From assembly GCA_963924565.1 (NCBI GenBank), contig OZ004615.1, positions 20,460,001-20,524,000 on the forward strand: a DNA stretch of 64,000 bases, written 5' to 3'. The notes below the pieces were generated by a model. That model saw nothing but the letters and a program-made list of their open reading frames with translations, searched no databases and was not told where the DNA came from. This stretch comes from Ascidiella aspersa (Eukaryota). Within the stretch, counting starts at the first letter, position 1. The number at the start of each line of letters is the position of its first letter. Below, piece by piece: positions 18,916 through 64,000 of this stretch. A program made the translations under genes and the position numbers.

Positions 18916-20270
18916 TTATTTTCGAGCTTCCGATTTTACTTTGCACTCTTTCGGCACGGCTATGGTTGAAACTATCGGGTCCAGTGATGGCAATTCTTCG
19001 TTTGCGCAACGAATGGTGAAATTTTGGATTATCTTTACAAAGAAAATTAATAGTTCAACGCGTGCCAAGCTCTCTCCGAGGCAAAACCGGGGTCCGATTA
19101 AAAACGGAATAATCTTGTGGGAGGCAACGAACTTTCCGTCTTCGTCTATGTGCCTGAACGGGTCGAACTTTTCTGGATTAGGCCACGTCTCAGGGACCAT
19201 ATTTGCCCCATCCAAGTTTGCCAGGACCTACAGAAAAATGCGCATGCACTTAAATGGACAACCTGTATATTAAGTAAGATCCTGATATTTGTGACGTTAT
19301 TTTAAAAGTCACGAGTTTAATATGATCTGACTAGTTATGTTGTAGAATTAATTATAGTGCTTGCTAATTTGTGGTAAACATACTGCTATAGTGGTACGCG
19401 ACTTTAATTAAAACACTTACGATTGTTCCTTTTGGAATCACAAAACCTTCCAACTCTACTTGTTCTGATGTGCAGTGCGCAATACCGAAGGGTACAACAG
19501 TCCTCACTCTTAGAACCTCTTGAATGAAGGCACATGTAACTGGCATGTCACGTCTGTTTGACATTGTAGGAATCCCCGAATGGCCTATATGTAATGATGT
19601 ATGTGATTAAATAAATCTCAAGAAGTTCTGTTTGGAAATGATTTGTTTTGCCTTGTGGCATAACAGACCCGATAGGACATTGCTAAATAAATCGCGAACA
19701 GTCATAATCTGACACACTAAGTAAGGGCCAGCAATTAAACAGTGAATAAAACCGTTCTTACCCAATTGTTCATCGATTTCATTTGCGATTTTATCCTGGT
19801 AGTTGGGATAGTTGAGGTAGTGCACGAACAACCAAGCCAACGTTGTACTGGTAGTTTCTGAACCTGCTACCGAAAGATCTCCACAGGTCGTCGTCAGCTG
19901 TTTGTTCTGAATAAGACTATAACTGGTAATTCCAAAGCTCTTAAATTCACTTAAATTTTACAGATAACACCAATTTATGGTTTTCCCCAAGGACGCAATA
20001 TTAAGGAAAAACTATATTCCATCTTAGTTGGAAATGTACTTTCATAATCTTTTGAAATTATAACTAAACAAAAATCACTTGGGCCTTTTATGCTTGAAAT
20101 GCATCATGAATTTTGTTATTATTTCCGTCATGCAGCTTTGCTCACAGTGAATCCTAACTTTTGTGATCTATTTCTGTTTCTTTGCTCATAAATAAACGCG
20201 TCGATATAATCGTTCACGTTGTCAGGATCAAACCGTTTTCTATGTTCTTCGACGCAATCATTCGTAAAAT
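18916..20270 (-). pseudogene. Orphan 3' half of a CYP2-like gene (exons 6-9 only); pseudogene fragment or alternative 3' module of G3
   Basis: Exons 20270-20146, 19906-19762, 19584-19421, 19227-18916 have canonical sizes (125/145/164/312), GT-AG sites and no stops. Motifs AGSETT, EVLR, PEKFDP, FLIGPRFCLG. No exons 1-5 are visible in the 1.5 kb before the G3 stop codon. Confidence 0.8.
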
Positions 20271-21772: not shown

Positions 21773-24700
21773 TCAACTGCGAACGTTTAGTTTAACTTTG
21801 CACTCTCTGGGCACCACTAAAGTTGAAATACTCGAATCCAGTGGCAAAAATTTCTCATTGGCGCAAGTAATGGTAAACTTTTGAATTATTTTGACAAAAA
21901 AGACGAAGATTTCAACTCGGGCCAAGCTCTCTCCGAGGCAAAACCGAGGTCCGATAGAAAACGTGATAACATTGTTTGAGGCAACGAACTTTCCCTCTTC
22001 GTCTATGTGCCTGTGTGGGTCGAACTTTTCAGGATCAGGCCAGGTCTCCGGGTCCATATTTGCCCCATCCAAATTAGCAAGAACCTACAAGAACAATAGT
22101 AAAAATATATTAATAGTAAATATTTCGTATTCTGAAAAAATATTTAACTGGCATTTTTGTTTGATAACTCTTGCTTGTGTTTATAGATTGCCTCTCAAAC
22201 CCTAATTCTAGGCCCTAACAATGCTATATCCGGACCCCCGTTTGTATTTGGCTTTATTATGTAGCTAGTTTGAATACTGATATTATAGATAATTCTTCGT
22301 TATATATTGTTGCTCTACACGTCCTATTGTAAGTTTCCTTTTAGACTGAGGCACGAATATAACACAAATAACACACCAATGATTCCAAGGGCACTTACAG
22401 TTGTGCCTTTTGGCAGCACGAATCCTTCAAACTCGACTTCAGTCGAAGTGCAGTGCTCGGCGCCCAAAGGTGCAATGGATCTAACCCTCAGCACCTCTTG
22501 TATGAAGGCACATGTTACTGGCATGTCGAGTCTCTTCGACATAGTAGGAGTCCCCGACGTTCCTACGTTGTATATCATATTCAGATATTTTACAATTGAT
22601 TGCGTTCACGCCCGCGAAATATAGACTCGTAAGGTTGACTAAGGTTTCCCGTAGTACCTCAACATTTCACGGAAAAATTGATACAGTTTTAGAAGATCAA
22701 AAATGCCATGCAAGTGTTTTAACATAAAAAGCTAATCTTACCCAGAATTTCGTGAATTTCGTCTTTAATTTGCTGTTGATAATCCTTGTAGATGAGGTAA
22801 TGCGCAACCAACCACGTGAGCATTGTGCTTGAAGTTTCTGAGCCTGCCAAGAAAATATCTCGACAAGCGGCGATAAGCTGTGCGTCCTACAATACGTTTA
22901 AAACCATACCAAGTTATAAACTATTGCTACCAGGCATAGTAATATTAATCAAAAACAGCTCTTCTGGTAATTTTAATTCTTAACCAACGTTTTAGCAACC
23001 TATGTAAATCGCCTTAGTCAGTGTTCCCTGGTCGGTATTTTAGATTACCATAACATGTTAGTTTACATAAATTAACTTACAAGGTATACCTTATCACATT
23101 TGAAGACCCAAAATAGAAATAAATAAAGTAATTTATATAATTAATCCTAAAGCATAAGTTGGATGTAAAGTTGGCGCAGTAAGAATAAAACGATAAGTAT
23201 GTCAGATTTGGTAATTTCGATTAAAATCGTAATAACTTTGTGAAATGTTTACGTCAGAAAAAATAAATAGGAATCCCTATAGGATATTGTGTTACGCTTA
23301 CTGTGGACTTTTTCGATTTGACTCCGTTTCTTTGCTCGTATATATACGCGTCGATGTAATCGTCAACATTGTCGGGGTCGAAGTTTTTTTTATTCTCTTC
23401 GATTCTGTCTCTCATAAAACCTTAGAATTAAATAAAGATCGTTCGTATATTTCTCACTGATGCCATAAAGATATGTCAATCAGGCGCGGCCAGACCGGGG
23501 GTGGTTCCAGGTAATTCTTTGGGATCACCTCGTTTTTGTATAGAAATATGTGTGATATTTGTAAAGTAGGTAACTTATAAAACACCATGCTAAAATCGCC
23601 TTTAACAAAGCTTGGGATTGCTGGCATGAATTTACTTCACTTGCATCCACTGCCATAGCTTAATCGACCGCTTTAGTAAATGAAAGTATACACTGCTTAC
23701 TCAGCCCGACACTTATTATTACGTCCATATCTCGCGTCAGTATTCGTCCGTCTTTATAGTTTTATAACATCCAACTAATAGTTTAAAACATCCAACTAAT
23801 AGTCGAATAAAGTGTTTATTTCGAATTTACCTATTATGTCTTGCATCCTCTTCTCAAACATTTTGACAGCTTCTGAAAATGGAGGACAATTTGCCAGAAA
23901 ACCGAGACCGAATACCACCGACAATTTTTTCTCGTATTTCGGGTCAGCAAATCTAAAGTAGACAACATTGTTTAGGAGCAAACAAGTATAACACACTACA
24001 TCGAAAATTGTTTGTATACTTACAACATTTCAAGCGTGTTAAGTATTTTTGTAAAGTCTTCATCTGTGTATTCATAGTGCTTTCCAAATGCGATTTGCAT
24101 GACGACGTTTGACGTTAGCAAGTAAAAGTATTCCTATGAACAACAAACAATTGCCTACTTTTCTTATCACAAAGGTGACATAACACTACCATTTTACTTT
24201 TGCAATACACTACAATTCTCCTTGTAAGGTATAGTGATTTTCAAACTGTTTGCCGGAGATTGTTAAGTGTGCCGCAAACTTTTGAAATTTCACAAATTGC
24301 CTATTTTAATTAACAAATCTATGCAGACAAGCATACAAGACATTATTGTACGCTATCATTTAACTTTTATAGTATTATGTTACGGGTGATTTTGAAGTTA
24401 TACGGTATTATTGTTTTGTAGAGTTTAGGAAGCACTGGTCTAAGGGATCACATTCCCAGCTAATTGTTAAATCTTTATGGGGTTTTGTGCAATTTTTTTG
24501 GTGTTCCGAACCCCGCGGTTTAGCTTTTTTGTGTACTCTGCGGTTAGATTTGAAGCAAATTGTACAAAAGACAAGAACTGGATAAATTTAGTTTCACAAA
24601 ACAATAACTAAATGCATGTAAACATTATTTTACTGGTAAGTGTCTCATATGTCGTGTATTACTGAAGACCGATCACGAGTTTACATACAAAAGAGCTTTC

Positions 24701-26101
24701 AAAAGAAGAACAGCTTTTTTAAGCAGCCCACCCGGTCACATAACATATTCAGCATCCATGTTATAAAGATTAGTATACAAACCTATACCTTTAAGTCTAT
24801 CGTATCGTCTGGTTTGTGTTTGTTTTTCAAATGTTCGATCAGTAGATCCCCTTCTTCATTTATCAATGTTTCAAACTTTTTCTTGCCCAAGCCTTTCCTG
24901 TGGAAATTGTATGTGGAATAAAAAGACGAAGGTTAACTTTATATAACATTTTACATAAACCTTATCAAGGTTATTTGCATAAATAGAGGAATCAGGTGTC
25001 ACTATGTAAAACAAATTGTATTGAATTCTCAACAAGTTTTAATACTACCATGCTTTCAGGTTAAAGTATAAAGTCAATGTATTATTTTATACGTTGACCT
25101 GATGAAGTACGGTTGTGCGAAAGCTTGTCGAGAATTCAATAAAATTTGTCTTTACATAGTGGCACCTGATTCGTCTAATTAGAATTAGGCAAATACGGCG
25201 ATTTACAAAGATTTGCATGAATGTTATCATTTGTTATTTGGTAAAAAAATTATTAACTTGAATTTAAGAACTCGACATTTAGATTTGGTTTGCCTAGAAT
25301 TCCTTTCTGATATTGTAAAATACCATTTTACCCAGTTTAAAATTGCGTACAAAAATGGAAAATAAGGCAAAAAGCGACCATACCCCCCACGAAAACGATT
25401 ATTCTGACAATGGTCATTGAAACACTTACTCTCGAAAATACTTTAACGCGAAATGCTTCTCAGATTTAAAGTCCTCGTCGTACTTTTTAAAAATAAAACC
25501 GTCGTGTCCGGTTGTTCGGCAGAATAGGACATTCCAGGGACGATCAGAAAAGGCATTTCCCTGCTTTACGAAAGCCTAAACAATTTTACAGTTAGCCAAC
25601 AAAGTATATTAGTAAGTCATCAGCCAAAGAGTAAAGGAATAAACACACTTAAAATGGTATAAGCAGGTTTAATCACAATGATTACTTTTCTTATAGTACT
25701 TAAAGGTGTCAAATGAGCCTTATCGATTTACAGTATAGGAAGCGGCAAACAGGCTTTAACTAACCTTGTATTATAAAACACAAAGTTTTGTATGAACATG
25801 TTACCTTGTTAATGACGTCAAATGTGTTTAAAACCACCATTTCGTTCATTCCCATTCGCACTGACATGATAGGTCCGTATCGTTCGAGACTCCATTTCTT
25901 GAATATCTTAGCCGGAGGTGATTTGGCAAGGTAAGGCAGCACTCCAACAATAGGAAAACCGATCGGACCTGGCGGGAATTTAGCGTGAGGTCGTGACCTC
26001 CAGTAAAAATACAACAGAAACAAAACAAAACTGATCCAAGTCCAGGAGTTTAAACTTTGCACGAATCCGACGACGTTTTGTATAATTTCCCGCGGTAGCA
26101 T
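21773..26101 (-). CDS. Cytochrome P450, clan 2 (CYP2-like), gene G3; 9 exons, ~507 aa
   Basis: Exons 26101-25805, 25575-25430, 24897-24789, 24133-24024, 23952-23831, 23420-23302, 22886-22742, 22562-22399, 22084-21773. Motifs AGSETS, EVLR, FSIGPRFCLG. Confidence 0.93.
24989..25170. mobile_element. Inverted Penelope-like pLTR pair (foldback) in G3 intron 2
   Basis: Arm 24989-25072 is the reverse complement of 25086-25170, with a hammerhead core in each arm (one intact, one broken). Confidence 0.7.
25094..25131 (+). ncRNA. Minimal (Penelope-type) hammerhead ribozyme, antisense within G3 intron 2
   Basis: ttgac-CTGATGA-A-gtac(ggtt)gtgc-GAAA-GC-TT-gtcga: stem I ttgac/gtcga, stem II gtac/gtgc, palindromic AAGCTT stem III, then AATAAA. 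Confidence 0.7.
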
Positions 26102-28427: not shown

Positions 28428-28557
28428 AATAGGTTCTCTCTGGCATATATTTCTTCTACCAACGTCCTGTTGGCTAAGTGTGTCAGTCCCTGACGAAGGG
28501 TTGCCGTATAGTAAGCCGAAACCTTGGTTGAAAAAATATATGCCAGAAGAACCTATT
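28428..28557. mobile_element. Inverted Penelope-like remnant with a degenerate hammerhead core, intergenic
   Basis: Arms 28428-28465 and 28520-28557 are reverse complements; the centre reads CTGACGA-A-gggttgc(cgtata)gtaagcc-GAAAC. Confidence 0.55.
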
Positions 28558-29924
28558 TTAAATATACTATGCCTGGTAACAACAGCATATTGACCTTGAT
28601 AAAGGCGCAGCACCTCAAGCTTGCGGATTAACGGATTTTTAAATGAAAAAAAACAGCGATAGATTAACATCACTTTCCTGCGAACGTTTATGCCGAAACA
28701 TCATCGGGTAAAACGCTAAACAATCCTGCTTCGAATAGTTAGGTTGTCAGTCAGTTACGTATATGCAGCCCCCTAGTTGACAATATTGAATAGTTGCACA
28801 TGACTTAAAATTACACAAATAAAAACGTTTGTTCTAGTAATACTTTCAACGCTGTTGTTGTGAAAACATATTGAATAATGTTGGTGCCAGGGCATTTTAG
28901 GGCTTTACACAGATTACCTTTATTGAAATTCAACCTTTACATCTTCAAATTTTAATTGATGTACATGCATTTGTGCCGTGCTTGACATATTCTTAGAGAA
29001 ACTTCGGCTTCTTTTAATATTAAAAATATACCCTTAAATCCACCCCAAATTCGATGCTTGCAGATAGGTGAGAACCTAAAACAACGGTAGCCAAAATAAC
29101 AAATTTTTGAGAAAAAGGGTGTATTTATATTTATGTTCATACTGCACACTTAGTTTTTTCTAGTGTGTTACACGCCAAACTTTAGGATTATCCAGACGAA
29201 AACACTAACACTAACAATAAGAAAGACAACGATTGCGTTAATAATAAAAAAATAAATTTCATTTGGCATACGATTTAGGAAAAGGTATGGTTGTCCTTTC
29301 TGTATCCGATACTAAGCATAAGTGCCTTATTTCCTTTATCTGCTCAAGAGAACGTTGCAATATGGATTTGTTAATTTGTCTAATTGAACTCATAACCTAA
29401 TCAGGTGCGCTATTCTCCATTGGTGTGGCTGCGTTTAACGAACAATCAAAGAGAATGGAGGACTGAGCAAAAATAAACTTTAAATATATGTAAGACTAAT
29501 AATTTGATTTAGTAGGTTTAAACACTATAGATAGAGCATAGACAGACTAAACCTTAAAGCCGTTGGGAGTGAAATCATTTACAAGTGTGAAAGAAAACAT
29601 TTACAAGCACAGTTCATAAAGTGCTACGAAAATAAAAACGAAATAACATAAATGTGTTGAAAATGCAACGAAATATCTTTATTCTTCGCTTTTTGGCGAA
29701 AACCAGACCCTGAACGATGTGTTTAACAAATTGAAAGAAAACATCTTAAGCAGAGGCAAAAAACTCATTAACAAACAATTTGTGAGGAAGAAATATATAC
29801 GGCAAAAAGTTCTGTAAAAAAACATTTTTATTACGAGGACCAAGTCATACCATATTTATAAAACAAAGCGCTTACGTTTTACATCAACGACTTATTACCT
29901 CCTACTTTGGAATAACTTAACTTC

Positions 29925-39289: not shown

Positions 39290-39410
39290 GTGAATAGAGG
39301 ACAAGGTAATTACGGCAACAGATAGTGAGCTTTTCGATTATCTTTACAAAGACAACAAAAATCTCAACACGATTCGAGCATTCTCCAAAGCAAAACCGGG
39401 GTTCGATACA
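39290..39410 (-). pseudogene. Degenerate relic of CYP exon 9 (heme-binding region)
   Basis: attatctttacaaagacaacaaaaatctcaacacgattcgagcattctccaaagcaaaaccggggttcgata aligns by eye to exon-9 sequence attatctttacaaagaagacgaagatttcaacgcgtgccaagctctctccgaggcaaaaccggggtccgat. Confidence 0.65.
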
Positions 39411-46774: not shown

Positions 46775-46945
46775 AAAATTAGGCAGCACTTAAACAATAG
46801 GAAGGCTGATTGGACCTAGCGGGAATTTAGCGTGCGTTCGTTATATCCAGTAAAACTACAACAGAACACACAACCAGACTGAACCAGGTCCAGGAGTTTA
46901 AACTTTGCAGAAAGCTGAAAAAAATTTCAATAATTTTCTGCAGTT
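46775..46945 (-). pseudogene. Degenerate orphan copy of CYP exon 1 (G1-G5 subfamily)
   Basis: ggcagcacttaaacaataggaaggctgattggacctagcgggaatttagcgtgc...ccaggtccaggagtttaaactttgca matches exon 1 of G3/G2. It carries a frameshift and has no intact donor end. Confidence 0.8.
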
Positions 46946-59301: not shown

Positions 59302-62300
59302 TTAATTTCGAATCTCGAGCCTGACGAGGCATTCGTGCGGCGAAACAACCGCCGAAACGTTCTCGTTATCGAGAGGAGGCAAGTGCGGATTGGCACTTCG
59401 GACGTGAAACTTCTGCACTATCTTGACAAATACCATGAAGAACTCGATCCGGGCAACGCTGTCGCCGACGCAGTAGCGAGAACCTATCGAGAAAGGAATG
59501 ATCTTGTTGGAGTTGACGAACTTGCCTTCGTCGTCGATGTGGCGCCGAGGGTCGAACCTGTGCGGCTCCGGCCAAGTCTCAGGGTCCATGTGTGCTCCGT
59601 AGATGTTCGGCATCACCTTTAAGAGACCATAGTCGGTATTATTTACCGATGGCTTGTAAACTTAAAAACACTACAATGTTGATCATGAAGCGTGAACATA
59701 ATGGACTGATCCAATGCGCCGTTTGTTCCTTTTTCGCCAATTAAACATTATTGATCTTGTTACAAATGAAGCGGCAAGCTCGCGATTTATGAAATGTTAT
59801 CCTAATAATGGCCAACCATGAAACCTCGTGAAAAAACAGATGGTGAACAGTCTTTTAATGCTAAAAATTTCGGATCAACATGACTCATCTTGGGCCTAAG
59901 ATACGCGAAAGGCTAGAAAGGACATAATAGACTATATAATTATGTACTTGAGTTGGTCAAACAAGCGGTTCAGTCGCCCAATAATGCCAGCACATACGGT
60001 GAAGGGACACTCTATCGTGTCACGGCAATAGTGTCCGAAAACACCCAAGAACATTAAAAGGCATCCAGCTTACAGGGGTTCCTTTTGGAATCACGAATCC
60101 GTTGATCTCAACCTCGGCAAGCGTCATGTGTTGAACAGCAAGCGGCACCATGGCCTGGACTCTTTGCACTTCGAGGATAAAGGCGCAGGTAAAGGGCATC
60201 TCCGACCGCTTCGACATGCTCGGGATACCCGAAGATCCTGCGTAACAGCAGGTTAACACCGAACGTATATAAATTAATATCGGTTGAATAAGACTTTTAT
60301 GACAGGTTCATTGAAGATGTTTGCGGCCAAATATTCGTATGGATTTTTAATCTAAATACAACACTGTGACGAAATCTACCATATTTCAGCATTATGCATG
60401 TTCTGTTGCCTTTCATTAGCAAGACCTTCTTTTTGACCTCTTGTATCTTTTGTAGAGATGCTTTAAAATCAGTTAACTTTAGTGTCTTCTTATTTGTTTT
60501 CTCGGGTTATATGCGCCGACACCGCGGGATCAATTGGTTCAGTTAACTGCGGTTTTGCGCCAAAATTTCAAGATTAAATGACAATTTCGGATGACAACAG
60601 TCTCTCTAGTTCAGGGGCCGGGAACCTTATTAGCTCAGGGAGCACTAAAAGCCAAATATTCCTGGTTGTGTTTCCATGGGAGCCATATAATACTATTAAC
60701 ATCTAGTTATAGGTTGGCAAAAATAGTAAATTGAAAAGGGAAGTTTTATTTGTTCTCATTTAAAGGGCAGAACATGAACTAGCTAAGTTTGCACAATTTT
60801 AAAACGGAGTTCCGTTAAAAGAATAGGGCCTTTTGAATATTAAGAGATTCCTTCAAACGGGATAGCAGTTTAAAAAATAAACAGGATTAGCGCGAAGCGC
60901 CGAAAATGTGCTACTATATGTAATTAAAAAGGAAATATAAAATTAGGAAAGCGGCCATGGTCGCGTGCAGTTTTATTTAGATCATGCTGTGAAATGATAG
61001 CTTAGATTTATTTGCAAGCAAGATTATTTAATCAAAAGAGCCATATTGCGTCACAAAAAGAGCCATATATGGCGTCACAAAAAGAGCCATATATGGCGTC
61101 ATAAAAAGAGTCATATATAGAACCCTAAGTTCCCGAACCCTGCTCTAGTTCTGTGCCATTTACAAGCGTTGGTTTGTTTGTAGGGTCGCCTGAAAAATCA
61201 CCGTTATTTCCCTGCCGGCTGAATAACTGTGCAGTTAAAGTTTACACGTAGTAGCTTACCAAGCACGCTCAGCACTTCCTGTTCAATTTGCTTTTCGAAT
61301 TCTGGGTAGTTGAGCATGTAGACAAACAGCCAGGCAATCTCCATCGCTGTGGTGTCAGTTCCTGCCACGAACATGTCACGGCAAGTGGTCACCAACTGGA
61401 TGTCCTGCGTTAAGTTGAAATGTTTTGCATTGTTTTTGCATTGTAAATTAATTTCCTATGCAAAGGTTAAATGATGGCGATATAGCGAACTAAACAAACT
61501 AATGGCAAATCGGTTACACGTATTTATACTGTAAAACGGAAAGAACTATTGTGTTTGTTGTTATGCATCAACCGGTACGGCCCGAGGTTTAGGGACTCCA
61601 GATGCTGGTTATGCGGGAACGTCATTTCTACAAATAAAGATAACCATCGCAGAGAAACTTGTTCGAGTAGAAAACAGGATTTTTTGTGGTTCTGACAGCA
61701 TACTTCTCCTCGATTTTGCTCTACTGTCATATTCGAAATAATAGGCTGTATAGTATTGTACTTTAATTTTGTTTTTTTTATTTCGTTGTTTTGCATCACG
61801 CGGGTTTGACAATCCTTTGTTTAAATTAAGACAAAAATAAGGTCAACAAGGGTACCTGCCTTTCGTTATATACAATATTCAGAAAACTCTGTTATCACTT
61901 GTATTTAAAACCATTAAACACCTACTGTAAATCCGTGTTCCTTGGTTCTATTGCCGTGCTTTTGCTCGTAGAGAAACGCATCGATATAATCTCCGATGTG
62001 TTTTGGGTCGAATCGCTTCTCGTGTTCCGCTATCTCTTCTCTAATAACGTCTGCAAGAAGTCATATGTGAAGCCTGTAACAGTTTAACCTCTGTCTAACA
62101 AGAAACGTTTTTAAATACATTTTGTTTACTGCATTCCAAAGCCATTGTAGGTCGTTAATACTTCAAAAAAGAAATTGGAGACAAATTCATTTTGAACCGT
62201 ACTACAAATATAATTTCTCTTTATTTCGAAAGTTAAGGAACATCAGGGTGGCTAGGCAAATCAACGGTTGACTTAACTGATAGAAAGTTAGAATAAGTAA

Positions 62301-63816: not shown

Positions 63817-63943
63817 GCAGACTCACCGAATCTGTCCATCAATGATGCAAGCAAATCAGGCTAGAAAAACAACTGCAGTGAGATTCGAACTCACGACCTT
63901 CGACAATACCGGAATCGTCGCTCTACAAACGGAGCTACATAGG
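63817..63943 (-). mobile_element. tRNA-derived SINE
   Basis: Minus strand gtagctccgtttgtagagc (A-box-like) ... gtgagttcgaatctcac (B box with T-arm hairpin), followed by a tail shared with 55817-55910. Confidence 0.7.
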
Positions 63944-64000
63944 CTTAAAGGGGATCCATTTAAGAAACAATCATAGGCCAATGCTTGCTACATTCTGTTA

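Follow-up and report, generated by a model that had tools for sequence, protein, structure and literature searches.

When two copies of a ribozyme lie on opposite strands of one intron and only the sense copy is broken, has the host disabled the copy that could cut its pre-mRNA, or has one copy simply decayed further than the other? The question is raised by a cytochrome P450 gene of Ascidiella aspersa, located in a stretch of 64,000 nucleotides that we analysed as a whole and refer to as the window. A sequence-only reading had described in this gene an intact minimal hammerhead ribozyme and a broken mirror copy. It proposed that the sense copy had been selectively disabled, while its antisense partner could still cleave antisense transcripts. 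The features on which the question turns are the following.

21773..26101, minus strand: host cytochrome P450 gene, nine exons, member of a tandem cluster
24898..25429, minus strand: intron 2 of the host gene (GT/AG borders and tblastn with paralogs)
24981-25212: whole insertion of a Penelope-like element (PLE), 232 nt, a 5'-truncated stub without an ORF, in intron 2
24973..24980, plus strand: left target-site duplication, ATTTGCAT, an 8-mer repeated at 25211-25218
24981..25072, minus strand: inverted pLTR arm without tail, sense to the P450 pre-mRNA (blastn against the tailed arm)
25029..25064, minus strand: broken hammerhead copy (family alignment)
25073..25085, no strand: head-to-head junction, a short AT-rich filler (sequence; other pairs have similar fillers)
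25086..25212, plus strand: tailed pLTR arm, the 3' end of the PLE, antisense to the P450 gene (family alignment)
25094-25131, plus strand: minimal type I hammerhead with complete core (sequence and fold), predicted to cut after 25126 if it ever dimerised
25181..25212, plus strand: PLE 'tail', 32 nt, in the tailed arm only
25211..25218, plus strand: right target-site duplication, whose AT is common to the duplication and the element end

The host gene belongs to a minus-strand tandem cluster (window 500-63800) of about eight 9-exon P450 genes plus partial copies, which include exon 1 fragments at 46940, 37792 and 10345 and an exon 9 fragment at 39410. The first exons of the gene ending at 18916 had no matches. 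Pfam p450 was matched in four of the nine exon pieces of the host gene. Its splice between exons 3 and 4 is crossed by four RNA reads, with a first-mate orientation that fits minus-strand RNA, and none of the reads listed spans the intron 2 junction. Since the host gene lies on the minus strand, the broken arm is the sense copy and the complete arm the antisense copy. Elsewhere in the window, a hammerhead-like pattern at 59321 falls within a P450 exon 9, on the strand opposite to the gene, and was put down to chance. A tRNA-like match at 63870-63944 (minus strand, 27.5 bits, E 0.16, below the Rfam gathering score) is possibly a SINE head or a pseudogene.

The inverted pair that had been placed at 24989..25170 is present there, within a longer element (24981-25212) that includes the tail and is flanked by a target-site duplication of 8 bp (24973-24980 and 25211-25218). 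The two arms share 82% identity across 96 alignment columns (blastn), and the inverted arm stops about 32 nt before the 3' end of the family, as do other inverted arms. The insertion was found in one of the six P450 paralogs that have intron 2 inside the window. A run of another study contains a 134-nt contig that covers the junction together with the broken arm and shows a single difference, and DNA reads of a further study (~5x) have no differences at these positions among those listed. No empty-site allele is listed in ~6x DNA reads, a depth too shallow to call the insertion fixed.

On the plus strand, every sequence detail that had been claimed for the core was recovered. Stem I is ttgac/gtcga (5 bp), CUGAUGA (25099-25105) is followed by one extra A, and stem II is gtac/gtgc (4 bp including a G-U pair) with the loop ggtt. 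GAAA at 25119-25122 precedes a 2-nt palindromic insert and then UU; the order GC-UU after GAAA places U17 at 25126. The plus arm thus has the complete core, the extra base after A9, the G10.1-C11.1 pair and the palindromic 15.2-16.2, all of which the minus arm fails to match. The word 'intact' holds for the completeness of this motif but does not imply cutting: loop III has only 2 nt, stem III is absent, and a search with the Rfam covariance models gave no hammerhead match at E<=1 within the window. The description of the inverted arm as broken and in sense orientation is also borne out, with nine events in 38 positions. N7-G8 (2 nt) are deleted from CUGAUGA, G12 is changed and the loop-III palindrome is lost. 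A loop-II pseudoknot was considered and is not supported here, as loop II has only 4 nt and its sole candidate partner, directly 3' of stem I, belongs to the most variable stretches of the family.

The plus-strand motif is not a chance occurrence, for a whole repeat family has it as its conserved end. Searching the genome with the right arm gave 56 matches scored out of 1466 first-look candidates, and reads at 92% likeness cover the motif ~180 times as deeply as they cover the genome on average (1113 vs ~6.3 expected). The exact 23-nt motif downstream of the hammerhead has 139 genome matches (control, 0), so the related repeat family whose existence the sequence-only reading had made a check does exist. 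Walking upstream via longer copies led to a GIY-YIG frame and then to a 488-aa frame with RVT_1 and GIY-YIG. In L094 this frame (RVT_1 E 3e-10, GIY-YIG E 2.3e-7, Pfam) lies upstream of the same hammerhead end. The end matching the tailed arm sits downstream of the RT/GIY-YIG ORF in L092-L098, and the frames of L092-L100 carry a C-x4-C-x2-C linker between RT and EN. By these predicted domains, the family is an endonuclease-positive PLE with the linker described for Neptune/Nematis. A tailed and a tail-less arm are combined in 27 of the 28 loci that have two opposite full-hammerhead arms. The proposed origin, a Penelope-like pLTR minimal hammerhead present as an inverted pair, therefore stands on the upstream RT/GIY-YIG, the tail, the target-site duplication and the layout. 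In the search for a full-length copy between direct pLTRs, the longest among ten fetched copies were 5'-truncated or frameshifted.

The left, broken arm has no close relative elsewhere in the genome (best other match 85%), and its damage therefore likely arose in place. A 'broken subfamily' as its source was rejected on the same match and on a damage pattern common to no other copy. Likewise rejected was a general tendency of tail-less arms to decay faster (0.040 vs 0.048 per site). Across the family, G8-to-A is a frequent core change (for example in L071, L072, L081, L083, L205 and the first unit of L245-L250). In some pairs it is common to both arms, which suggests that catalytically dead parents may still have been copied, or that arms converted each other. 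Two young insertions lie in other surroundings: an inverted pair adjoins a Vanabin-2 exon (L028:2845-3099, minus strand), a Pfam match that marks the host as an ascidian, and one copy lies within LTR-retrotransposon pol-like frames (L099).

For a comparison between strands, arms were sampled blind to ribozyme state, via the exact 23-nt motif downstream of the hammerhead. The sampling frame was the 100 matches listed among the 139 to this motif, with 7 kb fetched around 87 places in 86 regions. Six places were omitted as tandem or paralogous duplicates, the paralog duplicates L140 and L206 were also dropped before counting, and the count excludes truncated arms as well as arms whose alignment ran into their own mirror. 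Fourteen extra pair loci from earlier searches are reported apart from the unbiased sample. The host strand was taken from a score of codons and splice sites for which this genome served as training set, with a Pfam check on 252 frames; these strands are predictions (exon predictor and Pfam) and not annotation. The unbiased sample comprises 99 full-hammerhead arms, 31 of them sense and 26 antisense, with 42 left uncalled. The exact 23-nt anchor biases flank divergence in this sample downwards.

In predicted introns, the hammerhead sites of sense and antisense arms have changed at the same rate (111/1175 and 93/988, 0.094 each), with a sense/antisense decay ratio of 1.00 (bootstrap 95% CI 0.71-1.46). 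Among the arms with a called strand, neither orientation was conserved or had decayed more than the family rate would give. The core is intact in 12 of 31 sense and 12 of 26 antisense arms (p=0.60), and the arm numbers themselves have no strand bias (31 vs 26, p=0.60). Arms of the old subfamily alone carry 3.77 sense and 3.79 antisense events per arm. In 16 genic pairs, the hammerhead changes confined to one arm number 38 on the sense and 47 on the antisense side (one plus arm of L227 is counted twice); the sense arm alone is disabled in three pairs and the antisense arm alone in five. The 11 unbiased pairs have 29 sense and 39 antisense private changes (hand sum), with only the sense arm disabled in three and only the antisense arm in two. 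Mirror images of the focal case exist: L171, in a gene with an EF-G domain, has one sense and seven antisense events, and L205, in a fatty acyl-CoA reductase gene, has one and eight. At least nine events are found in 4 of the 99 arms (L142 and L205 antisense, L162 and L189 sense). Non-CpG changes are alike in core (94/990) and non-core positions (210/2164). Taken alone, the nine events against one in the focal pair give a binomial p=0.02; this gap is the widest among 35 pairs, at a locus chosen for looking so. The sequence-only reading had named beforehand, as an outcome that would count against it, that both arms decay equally throughout the family, and the 99-arm sample gave this outcome. 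The selective disabling of the sense copy is not upheld, because the family copies in introns decay equally on both strands, and the damage is likely ordinary decay.

Predicted folding suggests that there was little for the host to disable. The pair would have been formed with identical arms by one insertion event, as three old-subfamily letters common to both arms suggest, and each arm would then have drifted by ~9%. In either direction of transcription, the hammerhead is predicted to emerge after its own complement and to be locked in a long hairpin. The hammerhead fold alone has a predicted probability of 0.11, and within the whole focal pair the plus-strand hammerhead shape costs +30 kcal/mol (an equilibrium folding prediction only); on both strands of five young pairs the same type of prediction gives +62 to +69 kcal/mol. 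A freed focal hammerhead, having no stem III, would need a second same-strand copy, and the locus has none: the window carries two opposite-strand arms only, and no tandem same-strand retrozyme units. A trans-dimer is also not favoured (computed -11.9 vs -12.8 kcal/mol for two monomers). With the hairpin predicted to mask the motif, no stem III and no same-strand partner, selection probably had nothing to act against. On this prediction both focal motifs are idle: the sense copy probably never put the pre-mRNA at risk, and its antisense counterpart probably has no activity at present. The suggestion that the latter could still cut antisense transcripts is accordingly at odds with the prediction, as the complementary arm is made first and the fold lies 30 kcal/mol uphill. 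Cleavage by a single minimal hammerhead of S. mansoni was undetectable and multimers had low activity (PMC4209133). In an anole PLE, cleavage required the element's protein and was not needed for insertion in vitro (PMC11167929).

We therefore regard it as very probable that the focal stub is a 5'-truncated PLE insertion with head-to-head hammerhead ends, both predicted to be idle, and that the heavier damage on the sense side is likely neutral decay. A local mutational event, in which CpG decay and clustered repair struck one arm of a hairpin-forming inverted repeat, is an unlikely addition to this account. It would explain why the changes of the broken arm, including three adjacent substitutions and a 2-nt deletion, are concentrated in the 38-nt hammerhead while the flank of the same arm has 2 in 38. 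The broken arm has changes at each of its three CpG sites and the other arm at none, and CpG positions of the family change about twice as fast as the rest (109/594 vs ~0.096). Between-arm differences over the 34 other pairs are however not overdispersed (chi2 39.7, 31 df, p=0.14), and at a single locus such an event is indistinguishable from chance. It is also neutral and so is compatible with neutral decay as the main reading.

Weak selection that purges cleavage-competent hammerheads from the sense strand of introns, with the focal locus as one case, is considerably less probable. The nine events against one, with both core segments struck, would fit it. A smaller share of sense than of antisense arms has a fully competent motif, to a non-significant degree: 7/31 vs 11/26 overall (p=0.15), 2/19 vs 6/15 when the count is limited to Pfam-supported genes (p=0.10), and 5/26 vs 7/19 in the old subfamily (p=0.31). 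Tandem retrozymes, counted without distinction of strand, are reported as depleted from Xenopus introns (bioRxiv 10.64898/2026.07.22.740005). Against this, per-site decay is equal, mirror cases exist and arm numbers have no strand bias. Competent sense copies persist in introns with same-strand Pfam support (for example L171 and L184), as do young core-intact sense arms beside Pfam exons (L013 and L025). One hit would suffice for selection, so that nine are not needed, and according to the folding prediction the motif has been masked by the hairpin ever since it inserted. The ratio of core hits is 1.16 with an interval (0.63-2.3) that still holds a twofold excess or a modest effect. As a genome-wide proposition detached from the focal pair, the purging of cleavage-competent PLE mini-hammerheads from the intron sense strand, with a modest effect and most plausibly in solo arms without a mirror, is only marginally less doubtful. 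The least credible proposal, to which we give almost no weight, is that selection kept the plus-strand hammerhead for cutting antisense transcripts of the P450 cluster. That its 38 nt hold a single change and the 81 nt of its own flank hold 8 speaks for such constraint, but 19 of the 99 arms have at most one change and five of the six paralogs with intron 2 in the window lack the insertion. The motif is also predicted to be masked by the upstream arm and has no dimer partner. No RNA data set is listed as containing the stretch. One raw RNA run (a fragmented library) yielded 80 reads, most of which came from other copies of the family, and is uninformative on cleavage; at this low depth neither a pile of RNA ends nor antisense RNA at the locus was seen.

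The useful result is a negative one: a pair with an intact antisense and a broken sense copy is expected occasionally under neutral decay, and so is its mirror case. As found, the focal stub is one among hundreds of stubs of a known element class and of little significance. Purging of sense copies, if true, would be population-genetic evidence that weak PLE ribozymes cut pre-mRNA in vivo, and on a genome-wide scale it would bear on whether PLE minimal hammerheads cut in cells.

Two other arrangements of hammerheads were observed. In L245-L250, the hammerhead of the PLE family forms two to five tandem 46-nt units, with 14 exact junctions spread over six regions, at sites including G000:C2:20504150-20504330, 20512700-20512880 and G000:C7:6568250-6568520. 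These units sit in the long inverted arms of a ~10-kb fold-back element with no frame of at least 200 aa, and their number differs among the copies. Because the mirror arm opposite them is only ~61 nt and has no hammerhead, the units are unmasked and could dimerise in cis; they are a more testable object than the focal pair. A second hammerhead repeat family is represented at window 28463-28560 (plus strand), with a short inverted partner at 28428-28465 (minus strand). It has a 7-bp stem II and 53 matches from 360 candidates, many of them inverted pairs, and is probably another PLE end. The copy in the window has lost the family palindrome after GAAA and one stem II pair.

Within the partial coverage of our literature search, we found no account of strand bias of PLE ribozymes in introns or of Penelope hammerheads in ascidians, and supplements of the cited papers may list tunicate motifs. 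The insertion layout and opposite-strand pairs of minimal hammerheads are already known. Insertion units of endonuclease-positive PLEs have an inverted 5'-truncated pLTR, a 30-40-bp tail and a target-site duplication (PMC8557442, PMC3846280), and the focal insertion resembles them in its head-to-head inverted arm, its 32-nt tail at one end and its 8-bp duplication. It differs from the units described in being very short (232 nt), with no ORF left, and in its ascidian host. The Neptune and Nematis clades carry a CX2-5CxxC motif in the RT-EN linker (PMC8557442), and the family ORF is like theirs in its RT, C-terminal GIY-YIG and C-x4-C-x2-C linker. Opposite-strand minimal hammerhead pairs, 100-700 bp apart, have been published (PMC4209133). 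The focal motif shares with published minimal hammerheads the conserved core, the extra nucleotide between A9 and G10.1, the G10.1-C11.1 pair, a 5-bp stem I and the palindromic 15.2-16.2. Its stem II has 4 bp, against 7-8 bp in the S. mansoni examples, and its 2-nt palindromic insert matches the D. virilis variant. The animal non-LTR retrozymes (bioRxiv 10.64898/2026.07.22.740005) likewise have a type I hammerhead derived from PLE ends; unlike them, the focal locus has no tandem same-strand units, which occur elsewhere in this genome. Finally, hammerheads are conserved in amniote introns (reviewed in PMC6765202), and the focal motif similarly lies within a host intron. In contrast to the amniote motifs, it is a recent repeat in antisense orientation, is absent from the paralogs and is conserved no more than the family rate.
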